Assembly: GCF_036917095.1 (NCBI RefSeq)
Contig: NZ_JBALFH010000002.1
Span: 35,074-99,073 of the forward strand
DNA length: 64,000 nucleotides
Direction of reading: 5' to 3'
Source of the DNA: Nostoc sp.
GTDB taxonomy: Bacteria; Cyanobacteriota; Cyanobacteriia; Cyanobacteriales; Nostocaceae
Shown here: positions 40,147 through 45,230 of the stretch, one piece after another
How positions within the stretch are numbered: the stretch's first letter is position 1
How the letters are laid out: each line of letters opens with the position of its first letter
Notes under the pieces: generated by a model
Database searches by the model: none
Seen by the model: only the letters and a program-made list of their open reading frames with translations
Told to the model about the DNA's origin: nothing
Translations under genes and position numbers: made by a program

Positions 40147-41235
40147 ATGAGTGGATCGCAGGAGCTAAAACACTTTGGACATCACCTGATTTTAGGTATT
40201 TCCGGCACTACACTAAGCGATGACGATAAACGCGCACTCAGTGAATTAAAGCCGATTGGGGTGATATTTTTTGCTAAAAACTTTTTGGATGGCACTCCAT
40301 ATCAGGTTTGGTTAGAAAGCTTCAAGGATTTAAACGACCAGATACGAGAATATGCTGAACGTGATTCAATGTTTATGACTCTGGATCATGAAGGAGGTCG
40401 TGTAATTCGCACACCAATGCCAATTACGCGATTTCCTCATGCATTGTTGTTGCGATCGCACGCCTATGAAGTAGCAAAAGCCACAGCATTAGAACTAAAA
40501 TCACTGGGAATAAATTTATCATGGGCACCTGTAGCAGATATTTTTTCCCATCCCCACAACCCTGTGATTGGGCCTCGCGCCTTTGGTAACACTCCCGAAA
40601 CTGCTACTCAAGGTGCGCGTGATTATTACCTTGGACTTCGAGATTCAGGAATTTTGGGATGCGCCAAGCACTTCCCCGGACATGGAGACACCAGTAAAGA
40701 CTCTCACATTGAGCTACCAATACTGAATTTAACTCTAGAAGACCTGCGACTTCGAGAACTTATACCCTTTAAAACCTTAATCGAAGTACAGATTCCTTTG
40801 ATTATGACTGTCCATATCTTATTTCCCAAGATAGATCCTGATGTGCCAGGAACGCTTTCTCAGGCTATCCTCAAAACCATACTTAGAGAGGAACTTGGCT
40901 TTGAGGGAGTAGTTGTATCTGATGATTTGGATATGAAAGCGATCTCAGATATATTCATGAAAGCTGGTACTGTGGCGCGGTCATTTAATGCAGGCTGCGA
41001 TCTGTTTATTGTGTCGCGTAATATTAATTCATCATCTATTGAAAGAACTTATCGGATTGCTGAAGATTTCGTAGATTCCCTCAGTAACGGTAGCTTAGAT
41101 GAAGCAGTCGTAGAAGCAGCTAGAGAAAGAATTGAGAAACTATTGGCAGTAACACCGCAATATCCCGTAAGTGCTCTGGATAAAGATATACTATTGCAAC
41201 ATGCTGAACTAGCGATCGCTAGTTCCTATTCATAA
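40147..41235 (+). CDS. nagZ: Beta-N-acetylhexosaminidase (GH3, NagZ)
   Basis: 362 aa with KHFPGHGDTSKDSH and the GVVVSDDLDMKA motifs of GH3 NagZ. Confidence 0.88.
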   Translation: MSGSQELKHFGHHLILGISGTTLSDDDKRALSELKPIGVIFFAKNFLDGTPYQVWLESFKDLNDQIREYAERDSMFMTLDHEGGRVIRTPMPITRFPHALLLRSHAYEVAKATALELKSLGINLSWAPVADIFSHPHNPVIGPRAFGNTPETATQGARDYYLGLRDSGILGCAKHFPGHGDTSKDSHIELPILNLTLEDLRLRELIPFKTLIEVQIPLIMTVHILFPKIDPDVPGTLSQAILKTILREELGFEGVVVSDDLDMKAISDIFMKAGTVARSFNAGCDLFIVSRNINSSSIERTYRIAEDFVDSLSNGSLDEAVVEAARERIEKLLAVTPQYPVSALDKDILLQHAELAIASSYS

Positions 41236-41334
41236 CCCAAGTGCATTCAAGTTGCATATTAGCGATTGCCAAAAGGCTAACTAAGATTGCATTTCTTATT
41301 TTGAATTTTAAATTTTAAATTTTTAATTATTTAG

Positions 41335-41405
41335 TGGGTGGTATAGGGGTCGAACCTATTTCTGCGGGTTAAAAGCCCGCTGCACAGCCGGTATGCCAAC
41401 CACCC
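41335..41405 (-). tRNA. trnK: tRNA-Lys(UUU). Last gene of the array.
   Basis: Acceptor GGGUGGU/ACCACCC, anticodon arm GCGGG-CUUUUAA-CCCGC, T arm AUAGG-UUCGACC-CCUAU. No encoded CCA. Confidence 0.7.
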
Positions 41406-41464
41406 TAGTTAATTTGAAAAAAAAATGAGCAAGTGCAATTTGTAATACCAACATTAGATATAAA

Positions 41465-41536
41465 TCCACCAGGGAGGTACTGCCCCTCCTATTTCTGTGT
41501 TATCAGCACAGCGCCTCGCTTTTCGGCTTCAGGTGG
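41465..41536 (-). tRNA. tRNA-Ile(GAU)-like, atypical
   Basis: Anticodon arm CUGUG-CUGAUAA-CACAG. The T loop is GGCAGUA instead of UUCRANU. There is one U-U mismatch in the acceptor and a 3-bp D stem. Confidence 0.4.
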
Positions 41537-41542
41537 AAAAAG

Positions 41543-41625
41543 AGGAAGATGGAGGAATCGAACCCCTACAGTTGCCCGTACTCCAAGGTTCAAGCTTGGT
41601 TGCCGTCCATTCAGCAGCATCTTCC
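41543..41625 (-). tRNA. trnS: tRNA-Ser(UGA), class II (83 nt)
   Basis: Acceptor GGAAGAU/AUCUUCC, anticodon arm CCAAG-CUUGAAC-CUUGG, a long variable region and T loop UUCGAUU. Confidence 0.6.
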
Positions 41626-41632
41626 ATTCAGG

Positions 41633-41707
41633 GGTATCTGACGGGGCTTGAACCCGCTATGACTGGTTCCACAAACCAGCGCCTCGACCACTTTGGCTTC
41701 AGACACC
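41633..41707 (-). tRNA. trnH: tRNA-His(GUG) with encoded G-1
   Basis: G-1 opposite C73, acceptor GUGUCUG/CAGAUAC, anticodon arm CUGGU-UUGUGGA-ACCAG, T loop UUCAAGC. Confidence 0.75.
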
Positions 41708-41713
41708 AAAAGT

Positions 41714-41786
41714 GGATACTGGTCGGATTTGAACCGACATCTTTCTGCTTGCAAGGCAGACGCTTTCCCAGTTAAGCTACAGACCC
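41714..41786 (-). tRNA. tRNA-Ala(UGC)-like with a defective acceptor stem
   Basis: Anticodon arm UCUGC-CUUGCAA-GCAGA and T arm GUCGG-UUCAAAU-CCGAC. The acceptor GGGUCUG versus CAGUAUC has two mismatches and lacks the G3-U70 pair. Confidence 0.4.
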
Positions 41787-41793
41787 ATTAAAC

Positions 41794-41820
41794 CAATTCG
41801 CAATTCGCAATTCGCAATTA
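41794..41820. repeat. Heptamer tandem repeat (CAATTCG x3)
   Basis: caattcgcaattcgcaattcgcaatta is read directly. Confidence 0.8.
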
Positions 41821-41821
41821 C

Positions 41822-41890
41822 GTTTTGTGACGGGGATTTAAACCCCGACACAAAACACGCTGCTTCCATAAGCAGGGGACTTAAACCCCC
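41822..41890 (-). other. Two T-arm-like hairpins (possible tRNA remnants or minihelices)
   Basis: The minus strand reads GGGGG-UUUAAGU-CCCCU, then GUUUUGUG-U-CGGGG-UUUAAAU-CCCCG-U-CACAAAAC. The second is an acceptor-like helix stacked on a T-arm-like hairpin. Confidence 0.35.
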
Positions 41891-41982
41891 AAACTTTATT
41901 AAATAAGTTACCAGTTAACAGTTCGTTCGCGTTGGGGTAGCCTGCTGTTAGACATAGTGCAATCGTAATCTACAAACTCAGT

Positions 41983-42639
41983 TTATTTACTGCTATAAAG
42001 TTTTGCCCAATAACCTCTAGGAGGTTTCTCAATCTCATAAGCTTTACACCATTTTTCTACTGCCTTATCACTTACACCAAAATCTTGAGCTATGTGAGCA
42101 GTTGGTTTAGTCCATACTAGCTCGTGTAATTCTTCTTTAGATGGACGTTCAACCTTTCTAGACTTAGGTCTTGCCGAATAACGCCTTTTCATTTTTACTC
42201 GGCTTGCTTGACGTTGAAAATCTTTAATATTCCCGTTGAAAACGTTTGATTTAATTTCGAGAAAGTCCTCCCACCAATAAAAAGGAGAACTAATATTGGG
42301 TAGATCGGTTCTAATTATGATACCTCGGTAATCAAAACTGGGGTAAATAACCCGATCTTTATCTGGTAAGTAAATGGCGTAGTAATCAAAATCATCTTTC
42401 TGATACTGGCGTTTATGATTTCCATGCTTATCATTCCATGATGTATTAGCGAAAATTCGCCCAATGCTAGAATATTTAACCTGGATTTTCAGAAAGTTAT
42501 TTTCCTTCCATGCTACTAAATCAAATGGCAAGTGTTCGCAAATCAAAGGGGTGAAAATTACATAACCTTTAACAGTCAAATCAGCTATGGTTTTCGCTAC
42601 AGCTAGGTCTGCTTTTCCTTTTGTATGATGAGTGTTCAT
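41983..42639 (-). CDS. PD-(D/E)xK endonuclease of the group-I-intron-associated (I-Ssp6803I-like, PDDEXK_5) type with a C-terminal HTH-like tail
   Basis: 218 aa. The N-terminus TKGKADLAVAKTIADLTVKGYVIFTPLICEHLPFDLVAWKENNFLKIQVKYSS fits KG..aE..v...l...G..V..P......DLv......l.iQVK. The C-terminus is HIAQDFGVSDKAVEKWCKAYEIEKPPRGYW. Confidence 0.65.
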   Translation of the reverse strand: MNTHHTKGKADLAVAKTIADLTVKGYVIFTPLICEHLPFDLVAWKENNFLKIQVKYSSIGRIFANTSWNDKHGNHKRQYQKDDFDYYAIYLPDKDRVIYPSFDYRGIIIRTDLPNISSPFYWWEDFLEIKSNVFNGNIKDFQRQASRVKMKRRYSARPKSRKVERPSKEELHELVWTKPTAHIAQDFGVSDKAVEKWCKAYEIEKPPRGYWAKLYSSK

Positions 42640-42641
42640 GA

Positions 42642-42690
42642 ATTGAACCTAAATAATAAGAACAAATTTATCATTATTTAGGTTCAATTA
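42642..42690. repeat. Perfect 15-bp inverted repeat immediately upstream of the endonuclease ATG
   Basis: ttgaacctaaataat ... attatttaggttcaa with a 15-nt loop. Confidence 0.75.
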
Positions 42691-42700
42691 TGCCCACCCA

Positions 42701-42744
42701 CTGAGTATGGCGTACTCAGATGCTACCGATTACATCACACCCGC
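42701..42744 (-). pseudogene. Truncated tRNA-Gly-like 5' part: acceptor, D arm and anticodon arm with GCC
   Basis: GCGGGUGUGAUGUAAUCGGUAGCAUCUGAGUACGCCAUACUCAG shares its first 15 nt with the adjacent tRNA-Gly(UCC). No T arm or 3' acceptor strand follows. Confidence 0.5.
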
Positions 42745-42753
42745 AATGTTCAG

Positions 42754-42824
42754 AGCGGACGGCGAGATTTGAACTCGCACGAAGACGGTGGAAACGTCTC
42801 ATGCTGCCGTTACATCACACCCGT
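42754..42824 (-). tRNA. trnG: tRNA-Gly(UCC)
   Basis: Anticodon arm AGACG-UUUCCAC-CGUCU and T arm GCGAG-UUCAAAU-CUCGC. The acceptor ACGGGUG/CGUCCGC has an A1-C72 mismatch and two G-U pairs. Confidence 0.65.
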
Positions 42825-42828
42825 ATCA

Positions 42829-42901
42829 AGCTGGTAACAGGAATTGAACCTGCAACCTACTGATTACAAGTCAGTTGCTCTGCCAATTGAGCTACACCAG
42901 C
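42829..42901 (-). tRNA. trnT: tRNA-Thr(UGU)
   Basis: GCUGGUGUAGCUCAAUUGGCAGAGCA-ACUGA-CUUGUAA-UCAGU...GCAGGUUCAAUUCCUGU-UACCAGC-U. Confidence 0.8.
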
Positions 42902-42909
42902 ACTAATTT

Positions 42910-42987
42910 TGGTGACGGGGGCAGGAGTCGAACCTGCCGATATTCAGGTTATGCAGCCCCACGAGCCACCGTTGCTCTATCCCCGCA
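42910..42987 (-). tRNA. Aberrant tRNA (Met/fMet-like CAU or Cys GCA) with an apparent 8-nt anticodon loop. CCA is encoded.
   Basis: The loop is CUGCAUAA between poorly paired UGGGG/CCUGA. There is a mismatch at acceptor position 1-72, the T arm is GCAGG-UUCGACU-CCUGC, and the 3' end is ACCA. Confidence 0.4.
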
Positions 42988-42997
42988 TATTCACCAA

Positions 42998-43070
42998 TAC
43001 CCCTGACTGGATTTGAACCAGCAACCTCTTCGTTCTAGGCGAAGCGCCTCTTCCGTTGGGCTACAAGGGC
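42998..43070 (-). tRNA. Class I (short variable arm) tRNA with the Leu anticodon UAG
   Basis: GCCCUUGUAGCCCAACGGAAGAGGCG-CUUCG-CCUAGAA-CGAAG-AGGUU-GCUGGUUCAAAUCCAGU-CAGGGGU-A. It has C33, G1-U72 and A73. Confidence 0.55.
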
Positions 43071-43073
43071 AAA

Positions 43074-43148
43074 GTCTGAGTGGCAGGGATTGAACCTGCG
43101 ACCTGGAGTTCCCAAAACTCCCGCGCTCCCAACTGGGCTACACTCAGA
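43074..43148 (-). tRNA. trnP: tRNA-Pro(UGG), copy 1
   Basis: Acceptor UCUGAGU/ACUCAGA, anticodon arm GGAGU-UUUGGGA-ACUCC, T loop UUCAAUC. Confidence 0.7.
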
Positions 43149-43153
43149 TATTT

Positions 43154-43229
<76 letters not shown>

Positions 43230-43233
43230 TTAG

Positions 43234-43307
43234 TACCCCTGACAGGATTTGAACCTGCAAAATCTGGACTCTGATTCCAGCACGTATGCCAGTTCCGTCA
43301 CAGGGGC
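43234..43307 (-). tRNA. Class I tRNA with the Leu anticodon CAG
   Basis: GCCCCUGUGACGGAACUGGCAUACGUG-CUGGA-AUCAGAG-UCCAG-AUUUU-GCAGGUUCAAAUCCUGU-CAGGGGU-A. Confidence 0.6.
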
Positions 43308-43310
43308 ATA

Positions 43311-43383
43311 TCGGGATGGCAGGATTTGAACCTGCGACTCCATGCTCCCAAAGCATGGCTTCTGGCCGCTGAATTACATCCCG
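43311..43383 (-). tRNA. trnP: tRNA-Pro(UGG), copy 2
   Basis: CGGGAUGUAAUUCAGCGGCCAGAAGC-CAUGC-UUUGGGA-GCAUG...GCAGGUUCAAAUCCUGC-CAUCCCG-A. Confidence 0.8.
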
Positions 43384-43384
43384 T

Positions 43385-43462
43385 TGGTACTCCTGGTGGG
43401 AGTCGAACCCACAACCAAACAGATTTTAAGTCTGTCACCTCTTCCAATTGGGCTACAGGAGC
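43385..43462 (-). tRNA. Class I tRNA with the Leu anticodon UAA. CCA is encoded.
   Basis: GCUCCUGUAGCCCAAUUGGAAGAGGUG-ACAGA-CUUAAAA-UCUGU-UUGGUU-GUGGGUUCGACUCCCAC-CAGGAGU-ACCA. Confidence 0.6.
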
Positions 43463-43468
43463 AAATTT

Positions 43469-43545
43469 TGGTGCTCTTGGTGGGAATCGAACCCACAACA
43501 TACCGTTTTTGAGACGGCAGCCTCTTCCAGTTGGGCTACAAGAGC
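43469..43545 (-). tRNA. Class I tRNA with the Leu anticodon CAA. CCA is encoded.
   Basis: GCUCUUGUAGCCCAACUGGAAGAGGCU-GCCGU-CUCAAAA-ACGGU-AUGUU-GUGGGUUCGAUUCCCAC-CAAGAGC-ACCA. Confidence 0.65.
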
Positions 43546-43550
43546 AAGTT

Positions 43551-43626
43551 TGGCAGCCCCGCCAGGACTCGAACCTGGAATCTTCGCCTTCAAAGGGCGC
43601 TATGTTGCCAATTACACCACAGGGCT
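43551..43626 (-). tRNA. trnQ: tRNA-Gln(UUG). CCA is encoded.
   Basis: Acceptor AGCCCUG/CGGGGCU, anticodon loop CUUUGAA, T arm CCAGG-UUCGAGU-CCUGG, G73-CCA. Confidence 0.75.
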
Positions 43627-43629
43627 TTA

Positions 43630-43702
43630 TTGCCAGGGCAGGGTTTGAACCTGCAACCTCATCGTTCAGAGCGATGCGACTTACCAATTCGTCCACCCGG
43701 CA
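43630..43702 (-). tRNA. trnQ: tRNA-Gln(CUG)
   Basis: Acceptor UGCCGGG/CCUGGCA, anticodon arm CAUCG-CUCUGAA-CGAUG, T loop UUCAAAC. Confidence 0.75.
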
Positions 43703-43707
43703 ATGAT

Positions 43708-43782
43708 TGGCTGCCTCAGTAGGACTCGAACCTACAACCGCGCGGTTAACAGCCGCTTGCTCTACCGTTGAGCTATGAGGCA
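43708..43782 (-). tRNA. trnN: tRNA-Asn(GUU). CCA is encoded.
   Basis: UGCCUCAUAGCUCAACGGUAGAGCA-AGCGG-CUGUUAA-CCGCG...GUAGGUUCGAGUCCUAC-UGAGGCA-GCCA. Confidence 0.8.
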
Positions 43783-43788
43783 ACGAAG

Positions 43789-43863
43789 CCCCCCAGGTCG
43801 GAATCGAACCGACGACCTCCTGTTCTTCAGACAGGCGCTAACTACCAACTGAGCTACCGGGGG
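43789..43863 (-). tRNA. trnF: tRNA-Phe(GAA)
   Basis: Acceptor CCCCCGG/CUGGGGG, anticodon arm CCUGU-CUGAAGA-ACAGG, T arm GUCGG-UUCGAUU-CCGAC. Confidence 0.7.
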
Positions 43864-43870
43864 ATAAGGA

Positions 43871-43937
43871 GGAGAGATAGGTTTTACCCAGTGGACTGGT
43901 TTAATTCAACTCGAATTAGCCACTCCATCATCTCTCC
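43871..43937 (-). other. 67-nt tRNA-Ser-like remnant or structured spacer without a T arm
   Basis: GGAGAGAUGAUGGAGUGG...CCUAUCUCUCC has a perfect 7-bp terminal helix GGAGAGA/UCUCUCC and a Ser-like 5' end. The interior folds as a hairpin (UAAUUC-GAGUU-GAAUUA), not a cloverleaf. Confidence 0.35.
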
Positions 43938-43944
43938 CATGTAA

Positions 43945-44019
43945 CGAGAGTGGAGGGATTTGAACCCTCACGTCTTCAGTTTCGTAGACTGAGATGTTAT
44001 CCAGTTACACCACACTCTC
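43945..44019 (-). tRNA. trnR: tRNA-Arg(ACG)
   Basis: Acceptor GAGAGUG/CACUCUC, anticodon arm UCAGU-CUACGAA-ACUGA, T arm GAGGG-UUCAAAU-CCCUC. Confidence 0.75.
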
Positions 44020-44023
44020 AAAA

Positions 44024-44113
44024 CGGAGAGAACAGGATTTGAACCTGCGACGGATATTAACTACCCGTTTCCTCTTAGCAGGAGGACGCTTTCAGCCACT
44101 CAGCCACCTCTCC
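44024..44113 (-). tRNA. trnS: tRNA-Ser(GCU), class II. Array copy.
   Basis: GGAGAGGUGGCUGAGUGGCUGAAAGCG-UCCUC-CUGCUAA-GAGGA, a long variable arm, then GCAGGUUCAAAUCCUGU-UCUCUCC-G. Confidence 0.8.
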
Positions 44114-44117
44114 ATAG

Positions 44118-44200
44118 TGGGTCGAGCAGGATTTGAACCTGCGTGCAAAAAAGAACAGTTTTACAGACTGTCGCCTTCAGCCAGACTCGGCCACCGACCC
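44118..44200 (-). tRNA. trnY: tRNA-Tyr(GUA), class II
   Basis: GGGUCGGUGGCCGAGUCUGGCUGAAGGCG-ACAGU-CUGUAAA-ACUGU, a 12-nt variable region, then GCAGGUUCAAAUCCUGC-UCGACCC-A. Confidence 0.7.
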
Positions 44201-44207
44201 ATAATCA

Positions 44208-44279
44208 TTCCCTCGACGAGAATTGAACTCGCATCTGTGCTTTGAAAGAACACTGACTTAACCATTAGTCCACGAGGGC
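44208..44279 (-). tRNA. trnE: tRNA-Glu(UUC). Array copy.
   Basis: Anticodon arm GUGUU-CUUUCAA-AGCAC and T arm GCGAG-UUCAAUU-CUCGU. The acceptor GCCCUCG/CGAGGGA has a G1-A72 mismatch. Confidence 0.65.
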
Positions 44280-44341
44280 ATAATTTACCGAATTTTAGAT
44301 TTTGGATTAAATTTATTAATCTAAAATCTAAAATTGTCTGA

Positions 44342-44413
44342 CACAGGGACTAGGATTTGAACCTAGAACATCGGATTTGGAGTCACGAGGTGTTACCGTT
44401 ACACCATCCCTGC
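44342..44413 (-). tRNA. tRNA-Trp(CCA)-like with a disrupted anticodon stem (possible pseudogene)
   Basis: The loop CUCCAAA is typical of tRNA-Trp, but the flanks CGUGA/UCCGA give only 2 to 3 base pairs. The acceptor GCAGGGA/UCCCUGU and T arm CUAGG-UUCAAAU-CCUAG are intact. Confidence 0.4.
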
Positions 44414-44416
44414 ATT

Positions 44417-44493
44417 TGGTGGCAGCGGCGGGATTTGCACCCGCATATACCAGGGTATGAACCTGGGGCTTTGCTGATTAAGCTACGCTGCGA
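44417..44493 (-). tRNA. trnM: tRNA-Met(CAU) with a 1-72 mismatch. CCA is encoded.
   Basis: Anticodon arm CCAGG-UUCAUAC-CCUGG and T loop UGCAAAU. The acceptor CGCAGCG/CGCUGCC has C1-C72 unpaired, which is initiator-like. The 3' end is ACCA. Confidence 0.6.
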
Positions 44494-44496
44494 CAG

Positions 44497-44570
44497 AGGT
44501 CAGGGCGGGATTTGAACCCGCGCTAATCGGTTTTGCAGACCAACGCCTTCAACCACTTGGCTACCTGACC
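44497..44570 (-). tRNA. trnC: tRNA-Cys(GCA)
   Basis: Acceptor GGUCAGG/CCUGACC, anticodon arm UUGGU-CUGCAAA-ACCGA, U73 discriminator. Confidence 0.8.
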
Positions 44571-44573
44571 ATT

Positions 44574-44650
44574 TGGGAGTCCCGACGAGATTTGCACTCG
44601 CAATCTTCAGTTTGAGAAACTGACGGCTTAAACTATTCGCCTACAGGACT
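44574..44650 (-). tRNA. trnE: tRNA-Glu(CUC). CCA is encoded.
   Basis: Acceptor AGUCCUG/CGGGACU, anticodon arm UCAGU-UUCUCAA-ACUGA, T loop UGCAAAU, C73-CCA. Confidence 0.65.
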
Positions 44651-44654
44651 ACAA

Positions 44655-44728
44655 CCAGGGTGACGGGACTTGAACCCGCAACATTTCCGCAGACAACGGA
44701 ACGCTCTAGCCAGTTGAGCTACACCCCG
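44655..44728 (-). tRNA. trnD: tRNA-Asp(GUC). First gene of the array.
   Basis: Acceptor CGGGGUG/CACCCUG, anticodon arm UUCCG-UUGUCUG-CGGAA, T arm GCGGG-UUCAAGU-CCCGU, G73. Confidence 0.75.
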
Positions 44729-44738
44729 ATTTTTGGGA

Positions 44739-44778
44739 ATCTGTGCCTAAACTTTTAGGTTTTTAGGCACAGATTTTG
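44739..44778. repeat. Perfect 14-bp palindrome at the upstream edge of the tRNA array
   Basis: aatctgtgcctaaa cttttaggtttt tttaggcacagatt, 11 nt from the 5' end of the first tRNA. Confidence 0.7.
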
Positions 44779-45230
44779 TTGGTGAACTTGCCCATTTCTT
44801 ATTTAGTTTTCAAGGTTCAGAAAATTTACTGTTAGAAACTGTTAGGAAAACAACCAACACTCTAGGTAGCAAGCCTGTTATGTATTACGGATGTATTCAG
44901 TGGTTTTGATGAGTGCAAACTTAGAACTTTTTTCGTTTATTGCCTCTACTGCCGATGGTTTACAAGTAGAAACAGCTTTGTTGACTGGGGACTTTGGTTT
45001 ATTCCAACGCCTGTCCTTTAGTTGGATGTAGAACATAAATTTGACTCTTGAGAAGCTTTGTCTTTCGCCTCACTACAAATATACTACAAAATACTACAAG
45101 AGGTGTCAAGGGGTTTTAGAAAGTTTTTTTGAAATTGTCTAGAAAAGCTTCTGCGCTTAGATTTGACCTTGCTAAACCCTCTGAAAACTAAAACTACAGC
45201 TTATGATTGGTTGATCTTTAAAAGCCTGAC

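Follow-up and report, generated by a model that had tools for sequence, protein, structure and literature searches.

What is a single protein-coding gene doing in the middle of a tightly packed tRNA array, and why does half a tRNA gene stand directly in front of it? The question is raised by a 64,000-nucleotide (nt) stretch of Nostoc sp. DNA (assembly GCF_036917095.1, contig NZ_JBALFH010000002.1, positions 35,074 to 99,073 of the forward strand), referred to below as the window. The window carries an L-type tRNA array (trn operon) in which 27 tRNAs, called with ARAGORN and Rfam, are tightly packed in 3.4 kb, all on the (-) strand; the anticodon is unreadable in one ARAGORN call (44340-44414). 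The array is homologous to the trn operon of pCC7120delta and to other Nostocales arrays, with which it shares its gene order, and has blastn matches to 20 Nostoc plasmid records, including NC_003273.1. With more than 20 packed same-strand tRNA genes and homology to pCC7120delta, it is an L-type array. Its one long gap (41787-42752) contains an intact open reading frame (ORF) with an ATG start, encoding 218 amino acids (aa). A preliminary description of the window, made from the sequence alone, had named this as the only protein-coding gene of the array, and it is indeed the sole credible one, since the other ORFs overlap tRNA genes.

We consider it probable (roughly 60%) that the ORF is a free-standing gene of the homing-endonuclease type, carried with tRNA-Arg(UCU) in a cassette that spread by homing, and that a later deletion in the window, via a GGG microhomology, produced the half-tRNA.

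By Pfam match, predicted fold and conserved residues, the protein is a member of the PDDEXK_5/I-Ssp6803I family, to which the preliminary description had assigned it from a residue pattern. Residues 4-100 match PF11645 (PDDEXK_5) with an E-value of 8.8e-19 and 68.3 bits, against a gathering cut-off of 26.1 bits. The sequence-only match to PDB entry 2OST, the structure of I-Ssp6803I, is weak (E = 0.085), so that a fold search was needed; the D...QVK motif nevertheless aligns. An AlphaFold model based on 22 homologues (mean predicted local distance difference test score, pLDDT, 80.6) shows residues 5-126 as a well-defined domain, followed by a disordered linker (143-161) and, at the C-terminus, a helical domain (168-217). 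In a Foldseek search of the PDB with this model, all four chains of 2OST ranked first (E = 6e-8 to 2e-4), ahead of archaeal Hjc resolvases, and the protein is thus predicted to adopt a PD-(D/E)XK restriction-endonuclease-like fold. Residues K7, K9, D11, E35, D40, Q53 and K55 are invariant among the 22 homologues (48-93% identity). Of these, D40, Q53 and K55 constitute a putative catalytic-type motif, a conserved acidic residue followed by (E/Q)xK, to which the residue roles of I-Ssp6803I are transferred by alignment alone. The array-type copies differ from one another with a ratio of nonsynonymous to synonymous substitution rates (dN/dS) of 0.21-0.45, indicating that the protein is under purifying selection.

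The same layout is found in related arrays. Copies of the ORF in four other Nostoc arrays are 93-97% identical to that of the window, among them the intact copies of three further species, G224, G285 and G277 (G codes denote genomes and L codes fetched loci, of which L032, L037 and L055 are from G039, G277 and G101), which begin 51 nt past a complete tRNA-Arg(UCU). The same distance from an intact tRNA-Arg(UCU) is seen in an array of Kastovskya and in that of G039, which belongs to another genus of the same family and in which the ORF is a pseudogene. Recurrence of the layout in related arrays indicates that the association is not due to chance. In the ORF-less arrays of pCC7120delta, Nostoc HK-01 plasmid 3 and G231, the order is tRNA-Val, tRNA-Arg(UCU), tRNA-Ala, with only 4-5 nt between the latter two; at the ORF-less site of the G101 array this spacer is 96 nt. 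The tRNA-Arg of the ORF-less arrays is 52-58% identical to the ORF-linked allele, which is present in 5 of 389 Nostocaceae genomes, four with an array-type ORF and the fifth, G039, with a degraded remnant; the window genome has lost it. A comparison of the G277 array with that of G231 gives 97% identity as far as the tRNA-Val end, no relationship over the segment of tRNA-Arg, hairpin and ORF, and renewed alignment where tRNA-Ala starts. What was inserted is thus a cassette of ~0.87 kb, comprising a tRNA-Arg allele, a hairpin and the ORF, which replaced the resident tRNA-Arg. At the sequence level, these comparisons have shown the seat of the cassette in some cyanobacterial L-arrays, between tRNA-Val(UAC) and tRNA-Ala and in place of the resident tRNA-Arg(UCU). 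In a quick maximum-likelihood tree (IQ-TREE), the array-type copies from Nostoc, Kastovskya (Coleofasciculaceae, 87% identity) and Floridaenema group in one clade (Shimodaira-Hasegawa-like approximate likelihood ratio test, SH-aLRT, 98), which on this tree crosses families. A phage origin of the cassette tRNA-Arg was also considered and dropped, its identity to phage and chromosomal types being similar (56-68%).

Pairing with tRNA-Arg(UCU) extends to two further genomic settings, chromosomes and cyanophages. The window genome itself encodes a 55%-identical paralogue ~50 nt after its housekeeping tRNA-Arg(UCU). Among the Nostocaceae loci fetched first, tRNA-Arg(UCU) was directly upstream on the same strand in 29 of 29, and the same arrangement was found in 76 of 80 loci from GTDB species representatives. 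The ORF starts 51-83 nt past the tRNA 3' end in most loci, and the flanking tRNAs of these sister loci are complete. Presence is patchy (73 of 201 genomes of the family and 91 of 127 Nostoc genomes), and many chromosomal copies contain stop codons or truncations. In Nostoc chromosomes without the ORF (G201, G214, G216), homology ends ~8 nt past the tRNA 3' end; G174 has kept the hairpin without the ORF, and G135 has a remnant with an internal deletion. At the ORF-less site of G174 (L046), the hairpin is directly followed by the repeat motif GGGTTTAAGTCCCC, which in the window sits downstream of the ORF.

In the Synechococcus phage Sf-FR1, a gene 67 nt after tRNA-Arg(UCU) encodes a 144-aa PDDEXK_5 protein that is 43% identical to residues 1-129 of the window protein and is without the C-terminal domain. 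All 17 relatives retrieved from IMG/VR (L148-L164) sit 56-67 nt past tRNA-Arg(UCU), and the tRNA downstream of them varies. The ORF thus occurs sporadically at one fixed site, with empty and degraded sites, in arrays, chromosomes and phages, a distribution that fits the mobile, homing-endonuclease-like gene envisaged in the preliminary description.

Full-length homologues are absent from the plasmid collection searched, where only the C-terminal domain finds matches, in proteobacterial plasmids. A full-length homologue with 55% identity is found on a contig of a Chitinophagales (Bacteroidota) metagenome-assembled genome (L125), with tRNA-Arg(UCU) on the other strand at a distance of 952 nt; either the gene left the cyanobacteria by transfer or the contig was misbinned. 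One viral relative with PDDEXK_5, of 201 aa (L169 1383-2106), lies 45 nt after tRNA-Gly(GCC) instead of tRNA-Arg(UCU), and may represent a branch with a different tRNA partner.

The C-terminal part of the protein connects it to another class of nuclease. The tail had been described as helix-turn-helix-like (HTH-like), and a DNA-binding domain is supported there, although the HTH signal itself is weak (HTH_28, residues 180-205, E = 0.03). Residues 160-211 match the C-terminus of phrog_15471, a family of HNH endonucleases from phages (E = 9e-10). The orthologous array of G101 (L055, G101:C16:88500-94500) lies at the same chromosomal locus, adjoining the same 362-aa gene, and harbours three other ORFs: a second PDDEXK_5 protein of 277 aa, 31 nt after tRNA-Ser(UGA), an HNH protein of 295 aa, and a 288-aa protein resembling microbial poly(ADP-ribose) glycohydrolase (PARG). 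The C-terminal domain of the window ORF is also present on the G101 PDDEXK_5 and HNH proteins, and in the HNH protein is 73% identical at the protein and 82% at the DNA level. The window site corresponding to the 277-aa ORF is empty (junction 41537-41540). Thirteen IMG/VR loci match this C-terminal domain alone (L170-L182); all 13 lie within 1.5 kb of tRNA genes, most of them between two, and a Pfam scan of nine of these domain-only proteins identified eight as HNH endonucleases. An HNH gene with a matching C-terminal domain also lies inside the tRNA cluster of Bacillus phage Izhevsk (L145). Since the module is shared with HNH proteins among tRNA genes, the window protein is a modular fusion of the type typical of free-standing homing endonucleases, and the shared domain is a candidate "tRNA-cluster address label".

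Between the tRNA and the start codon lies a hairpin. The preliminary description had reported a perfect 15-bp palindrome before the ORF; the palindrome is present, with longer arms of 22 nt (42641-42662 and 42668-42689) that are 91% complementary and whose outer 17 bp are perfect. Folded as RNA, it has a free energy of -32.1 kcal/mol (z = -8.9) and buries a Shine-Dalgarno (SD)-like AGG together with the AUG. It is kept in the sister arrays with one compensatory change from A:T to C:G, and the chromosomal paralogues are preceded by an analogous hairpin. Translation-limiting hairpins are known for some phage endonuclease genes, and occlusion of the SD-like motif and start codon may limit translation here. 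No sigma-70-like promoter was found in 41700-42900, and the ORF is therefore probably read from the array transcript. In both hairpin types (L002 2152-2201 and the window), the arms end in GAACC and GGTTC, the halves of the tRNA T-arm consensus, and the 5' arm of the chromosomal hairpin repeats 7 nt (GAACCCT) of the T arm of the adjoining tRNA-Arg.

Several observations weigh against homing as the explanation. The cassette allele of tRNA-Arg is found only with the ORF or its remnant, as expected for a co-inherited flank marker; ordinary recombination would give the same pattern, and the cassette could have reached the arrays by such recombination in flanking tRNA genes. The phage tRNA core provides no such difference: among 15 viral contigs that have an identical 35-nt tRNA-Arg core and extend downstream of it (L183-L198), the ORF is present in 7 and absent in 8, so a 'resistant allele' is not general. 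The chromosomal clade roughly tracks taxonomy across Nostocales, and for these loci a long vertical inheritance next to tRNA-Arg is no less likely than repeated invasion. At the chromosomal loci, the hairpin appears to be conserved mainly as sequence: RNAalifold on 53 spacers gave a consensus of just 4 bp, and although a 10-bp stem is 91% paired, its covariation is not significant (the score was reached in 95 of 500 shuffles), so that no proven RNA structure is claimed for these loci. Finally, distant PDDEXK_5 paralogues in Nostocaceae (~30% identity) were considered as a possible intron-borne type, and two examples had neither a tRNA nor an intron nearby; family membership alone is thus no proof of homing.

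Some of the same data would suit a domesticated gene with a cellular function, for instance a nuclease or regulator that works at the tRNA-Arg(UCU) locus, a gene for defence, or an autoregulatory protein binding the inverted repeat. Purifying selection, the fixed position behind a conserved upstream inverted repeat and the taxonomic pattern of the chromosomal clade are all in keeping with it, and PF11645, in phage Sf-FR1, is listed as a defence-associated domain in PMC12284385. A gene of cellular use would sit uneasily with the patchy distribution in the family and in Nostoc, the many copies with stops or truncations and the clean empty sites; moreover, the nearest characterised relative is a homing endonuclease and HNH homing endonucleases of phages have the same C-terminal module. 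We regard this explanation as unlikely, though as the most serious competitor to a homing gene.

The half-tRNA of the window is a deletion product, the ORF and hairpin having been left intact. The fragment (42699-42744, (-) strand) is identical to the first 46 nt of the intact tRNA-Gly(GCC) of G277 (L037 1221-1292), and by hand count ~87% identical to that of G039 (L032 5729-5774), where it falls inside an 89.5% blastn block. As the preliminary description had it, the acceptor 5' strand, D arm and GCC anticodon arm are present and the T arm is missing; the fragment is, however, 2 nt longer than was given, and 14 rather than all of its first 15 nt match the neighbouring tRNA-Gly(UCC), position 1 being G in one and A in the other. 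Without a T arm, it yields no tRNA call by ARAGORN or Rfam at E<=1, and as it lacks a complete cloverleaf with T arm and 3' acceptor strand it is not a functional tRNA. Beyond position 46-52 of the fragment, the sequence derives from the end of tRNA-Arg and the hairpin.

The sister arrays reveal what is missing. The order in G039 is tRNA-Thr, tRNA-Gly(UCC), intact tRNA-Gly(GCC), a 90-nt spacer, tRNA-Val(UAC), tRNA-Arg(UCU), hairpin, degraded ORF remnant and tRNA-Ala, and that in G277 is tRNA-Thr, tRNA-Gly(GCC), tRNA-Val(UAC), tRNA-Arg(UCU), hairpin and ORF. Two collinear blastn blocks link the window to G039, one joining 43075-42699 to L032 5397-5774 and the other joining 42695-42543 to L032 6040-6192, which begins at the final 5 nt of tRNA-Arg. 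From these blocks and the sister arrays it follows that, in the window, tRNA-Gly(GCC) has been stripped of its T arm and 3' strand, tRNA-Val(UAC) is gone, and only the last 5 nt remain of tRNA-Arg(UCU). Measured against G039 the deletion comprises 265 nt, and against G277 ~175 nt. Its two ends share a GGG microhomology (GTGGG in the T stem of tRNA-Gly, GAGGG at the acceptor end of tRNA-Arg), and the junction lies within 42693-42698. The fragment thus arose as a chimera, by a deletion that fused 46 nt of tRNA-Gly(GCC) to the 5 nt left of tRNA-Arg, and is not an insertion scar.

It is conceivable that the scar was self-inflicted, the nuclease having cut at or near its own tRNA-Arg(UCU) and microhomology-mediated end joining having made the deletion. 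The deletion ends 5 nt before the tRNA-Arg 3' end, which is the presumed target region, and a GGG microhomology was used; arrays with such ORFs show many rearrangements, and frequent insertions, duplications and deletions are reported in PMC8421152. Similar tRNA sequences that slipped or recombined with one another would account for the deletion equally well, and three sister arrays keep both ORF and tRNA-Arg undamaged. We therefore hold a self-inflicted cut to be a rather improbable cause.

Insertion of the endonuclease gene into a tRNA-Gly gene, with the 44-nt fragment as its scar, had been proposed in the preliminary description, the fragment abutting the hairpin and ORF and adjoining a paralogous tRNA-Gly(UCC). 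This proposal is very improbable: in the sister arrays the ORF occupies the equivalent position and follows a complete tRNA-Arg(UCU), the very situation that the preliminary description had named as refuting its idea; tRNA-Val and (in both G277 and G039) an intact tRNA-Gly(GCC) lie further upstream there, the window retains the last 5 nt of tRNA-Arg, and no tRNA-Gly 3' half exists downstream of the ORF.

An ORF within a group I intron of a tRNA gene, as for I-Ssp6803I, is suggested by the NCBI name of homologues, 'group I intron-associated PD-(D/E)XK endonuclease', and can be dismissed almost entirely, as sister loci have complete flanking tRNAs with the ORF starting beyond their 3' ends and the intron model check called for in the preliminary description returned no Rfam Intron_gpI match at E<=1, either in 41200-45000 or beside the chromosomal paralogue, which refutes it at the sensitivity of the Rfam model. 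The gene is therefore free-standing, and the label "Group I intron-associated" is misleading for these proteins.

For a free-standing gene that homes with tRNA-Arg(UCU), we infer DNA cleavage, target, homing and translational control from sequence, and the following mechanism is envisaged. The enzyme would cut ORF-less tRNA-Arg(UCU) loci, most simply at the tRNA 3' end or its flank, which the insertion disrupts. Repair would then copy the ORF and flanking sequence from the donor and, in arrays, also the linked tRNA-Arg allele. Such 'intronless homing' by free-standing endonucleases is known from SegB, SegF and SegG of phage T4. The ORF would be transcribed with the array, and the hairpin over the SD-like AGG and AUG would limit its translation. 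In the window, a later deletion between the GGG microhomologies removed tRNA-Val(UAC) and tRNA-Arg(UCU), sparing the ORF and hairpin.

The closest characterised relative, I-Ssp6803I (2OST, PF11645), is encoded in the tRNA-fMet group I intron of Synechocystis. It has the same PD-(D/E)XK fold (Foldseek E = 6e-8, ~24% identity over 119 columns) with an aligned D...QxK motif, and is likewise cyanobacterial and tied to a tRNA gene. However, I-Ssp6803I is intron-borne and has about 150 aa, whereas the window ORF is free-standing and has 218 aa, including a beta-rich middle part and, at the C-terminus, a DNA-binding domain, neither of which I-Ssp6803I has; the I-Ssp6803I site is the anticodon loop, whereas the window-type ORF lies downstream of the tRNA-Arg(UCU) gene. 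T4 SegB offers a parallel in behaviour, as it is likewise a free-standing nuclease gene among tRNA genes with presence/absence polymorphism, and flanking tRNA genes appear to travel along with it. SegB, like SegF and SegG, is a GIY-YIG enzyme, in contrast to the PD-(D/E)XK type paired with one tRNA species in bacterial arrays, chromosomes and phages.

Endonuclease genes in tRNA arrays have already been described. Santamaria-Gomez et al. 2021 (PMC8421152) described L-arrays and how they spread horizontally, noted protein genes "linked or embedded" in the arrays, compared the situation with SegB, and reported an HNH homing endonuclease, all8564, adjoining the trn operon of Anabaena PCC 7120. The host element (the L-array) and the proposed role in spreading and reshaping arrays are the same for all8564 as for the window-type ORF, but all8564 is an HNH protein located upstream of the array and is without the C-terminal domain. 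The main text of that paper contains neither 'PDDEXK' nor 'restriction', and its homing-endonuclease passages name HNH only. Among the genes of mycobacterial tRNA arrays, those for HNH endonucleases are the most frequent, and they have been linked to the diversity of the tRNA repertoire (PMC5966550). The suggestion in the preliminary description that endonucleases reshuffle tRNA arrays had thus been published before (PMC8421152, PMC5966550). HNH endonucleases of phage tRNA arrays, such as that of Bacillus phage Izhevsk, share the C-terminal domain and a seat between tRNA genes; those of phage and mycobacterial arrays have an HNH nuclease domain and, unlike the window-type ORF, no fixed tRNA partner was seen for them. 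An incomplete search of the literature, with figures excluded, found no PD-(D/E)XK endonuclease paired with tRNA-Arg(UCU), no such cassette and no mention of the shared C-terminal domain.

The main value of these results is the link between one nuclease lineage and one tRNA gene. If targeting of tRNA-Arg(UCU) is true, this enzyme would be without precedent among free-standing PD-(D/E)XK homing endonucleases in having a defined tRNA partner, and would provide a concrete mechanism for the exchange and loss of tRNA genes in L-arrays and phage clusters, earlier proposed only by analogy with T4 SegB. More speculatively, we hypothesize a guild of modular nucleases, with PD-(D/E)XK or HNH heads and one C-terminal DNA-binding domain, specialised on tRNA gene clusters in phages and cyanobacterial arrays. 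Its PD-(D/E)XK branch would be dedicated to the tRNA-Arg(UCU) loci of cyanophages, L-arrays and Nostocales chromosomes, its activity would drive replacement, spread and breakage of tRNA genes, and the window deletion would be self-inflicted and repaired through microhomology. We offer this wider picture tentatively and think it doubtful as a whole. The features discussed are listed in the table.

Table. Coordinates of the features of the tRNA array and its nuclease cassette in the window
Feature	Position	Strand	Basis
Host L-type tRNA array	41334..44729	(-)	27 ARAGORN calls, Rfam
Intact ORF, 218 aa: PDDEXK_5 nuclease domain, disordered linker and predicted C-terminal helical DNA-binding domain	41983..42639	(-)	ORF call, Pfam, AlphaFold model, Foldseek
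N-terminal nuclease domain, residues 4-126, predicted I-Ssp6803I-like fold	42262..42630	(-)	Pfam, pLDDT ~90, Foldseek, invariant residues
Putative DNA-binding domain at the C-terminus, residues 160-218, also present on HNH homing endonucleases of tRNA clusters	41986..42162	(-)	phrog_15471 match, identity to G101 HNH protein
Inverted repeat/hairpin directly before the start codon, SD-like AGG in 3' arm	42641..42689	(-)	complementary arms, RNA folding
Last 5 nt (GGGCA) of the deleted cassette tRNA-Arg(UCU)	42691..42695	(-)	blastn block against L032 and intact tRNA-Arg 3' ends
Truncated tRNA-Gly(GCC) pseudogene, 5' 46 nt: acceptor 5' strand, D arm, anticodon arm, start of variable region	42699..42744	(-)	identity to L037 1221-1266
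Intact tRNA-Gly(UCC), paralogue of the truncated tRNA-Gly(GCC)	42753..42824	(-)	ARAGORN, Rfam
tRNA-Ala(UGC), downstream bound of the cassette	41714..41786	(-)	ARAGORN/Rfam calls and array comparison
111-nt insert between ORF and tRNA-Ala, TTTAAT direct repeats at both ends, not part of the cassette	41787..41897	(-)	absent here in G277 and G039
Terminator-like hairpin with T-rich tail, inside the insert	41860-41875	(-)	terminator-like site

The insert downstream of the ORF is specific to the window. It contains two T-arm-like hairpins, three heptamer repeats and a terminator-like hairpin, and its core motif GGGGTTTAARTCCCC occurs 9 times in the genome compared with 0 for the control; it looks like a small dispersed repeat insertion rather than tRNA relics. 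The terminator-like hairpin could cut the distal tRNAs (Ala, His, Ser, Lys) off the array transcript. Upstream of the fragment, the tRNA-Gly(UCC) of the window begins with A at 42824 where G039 has G, which places an A1-C72 mismatch at the top of its acceptor stem.

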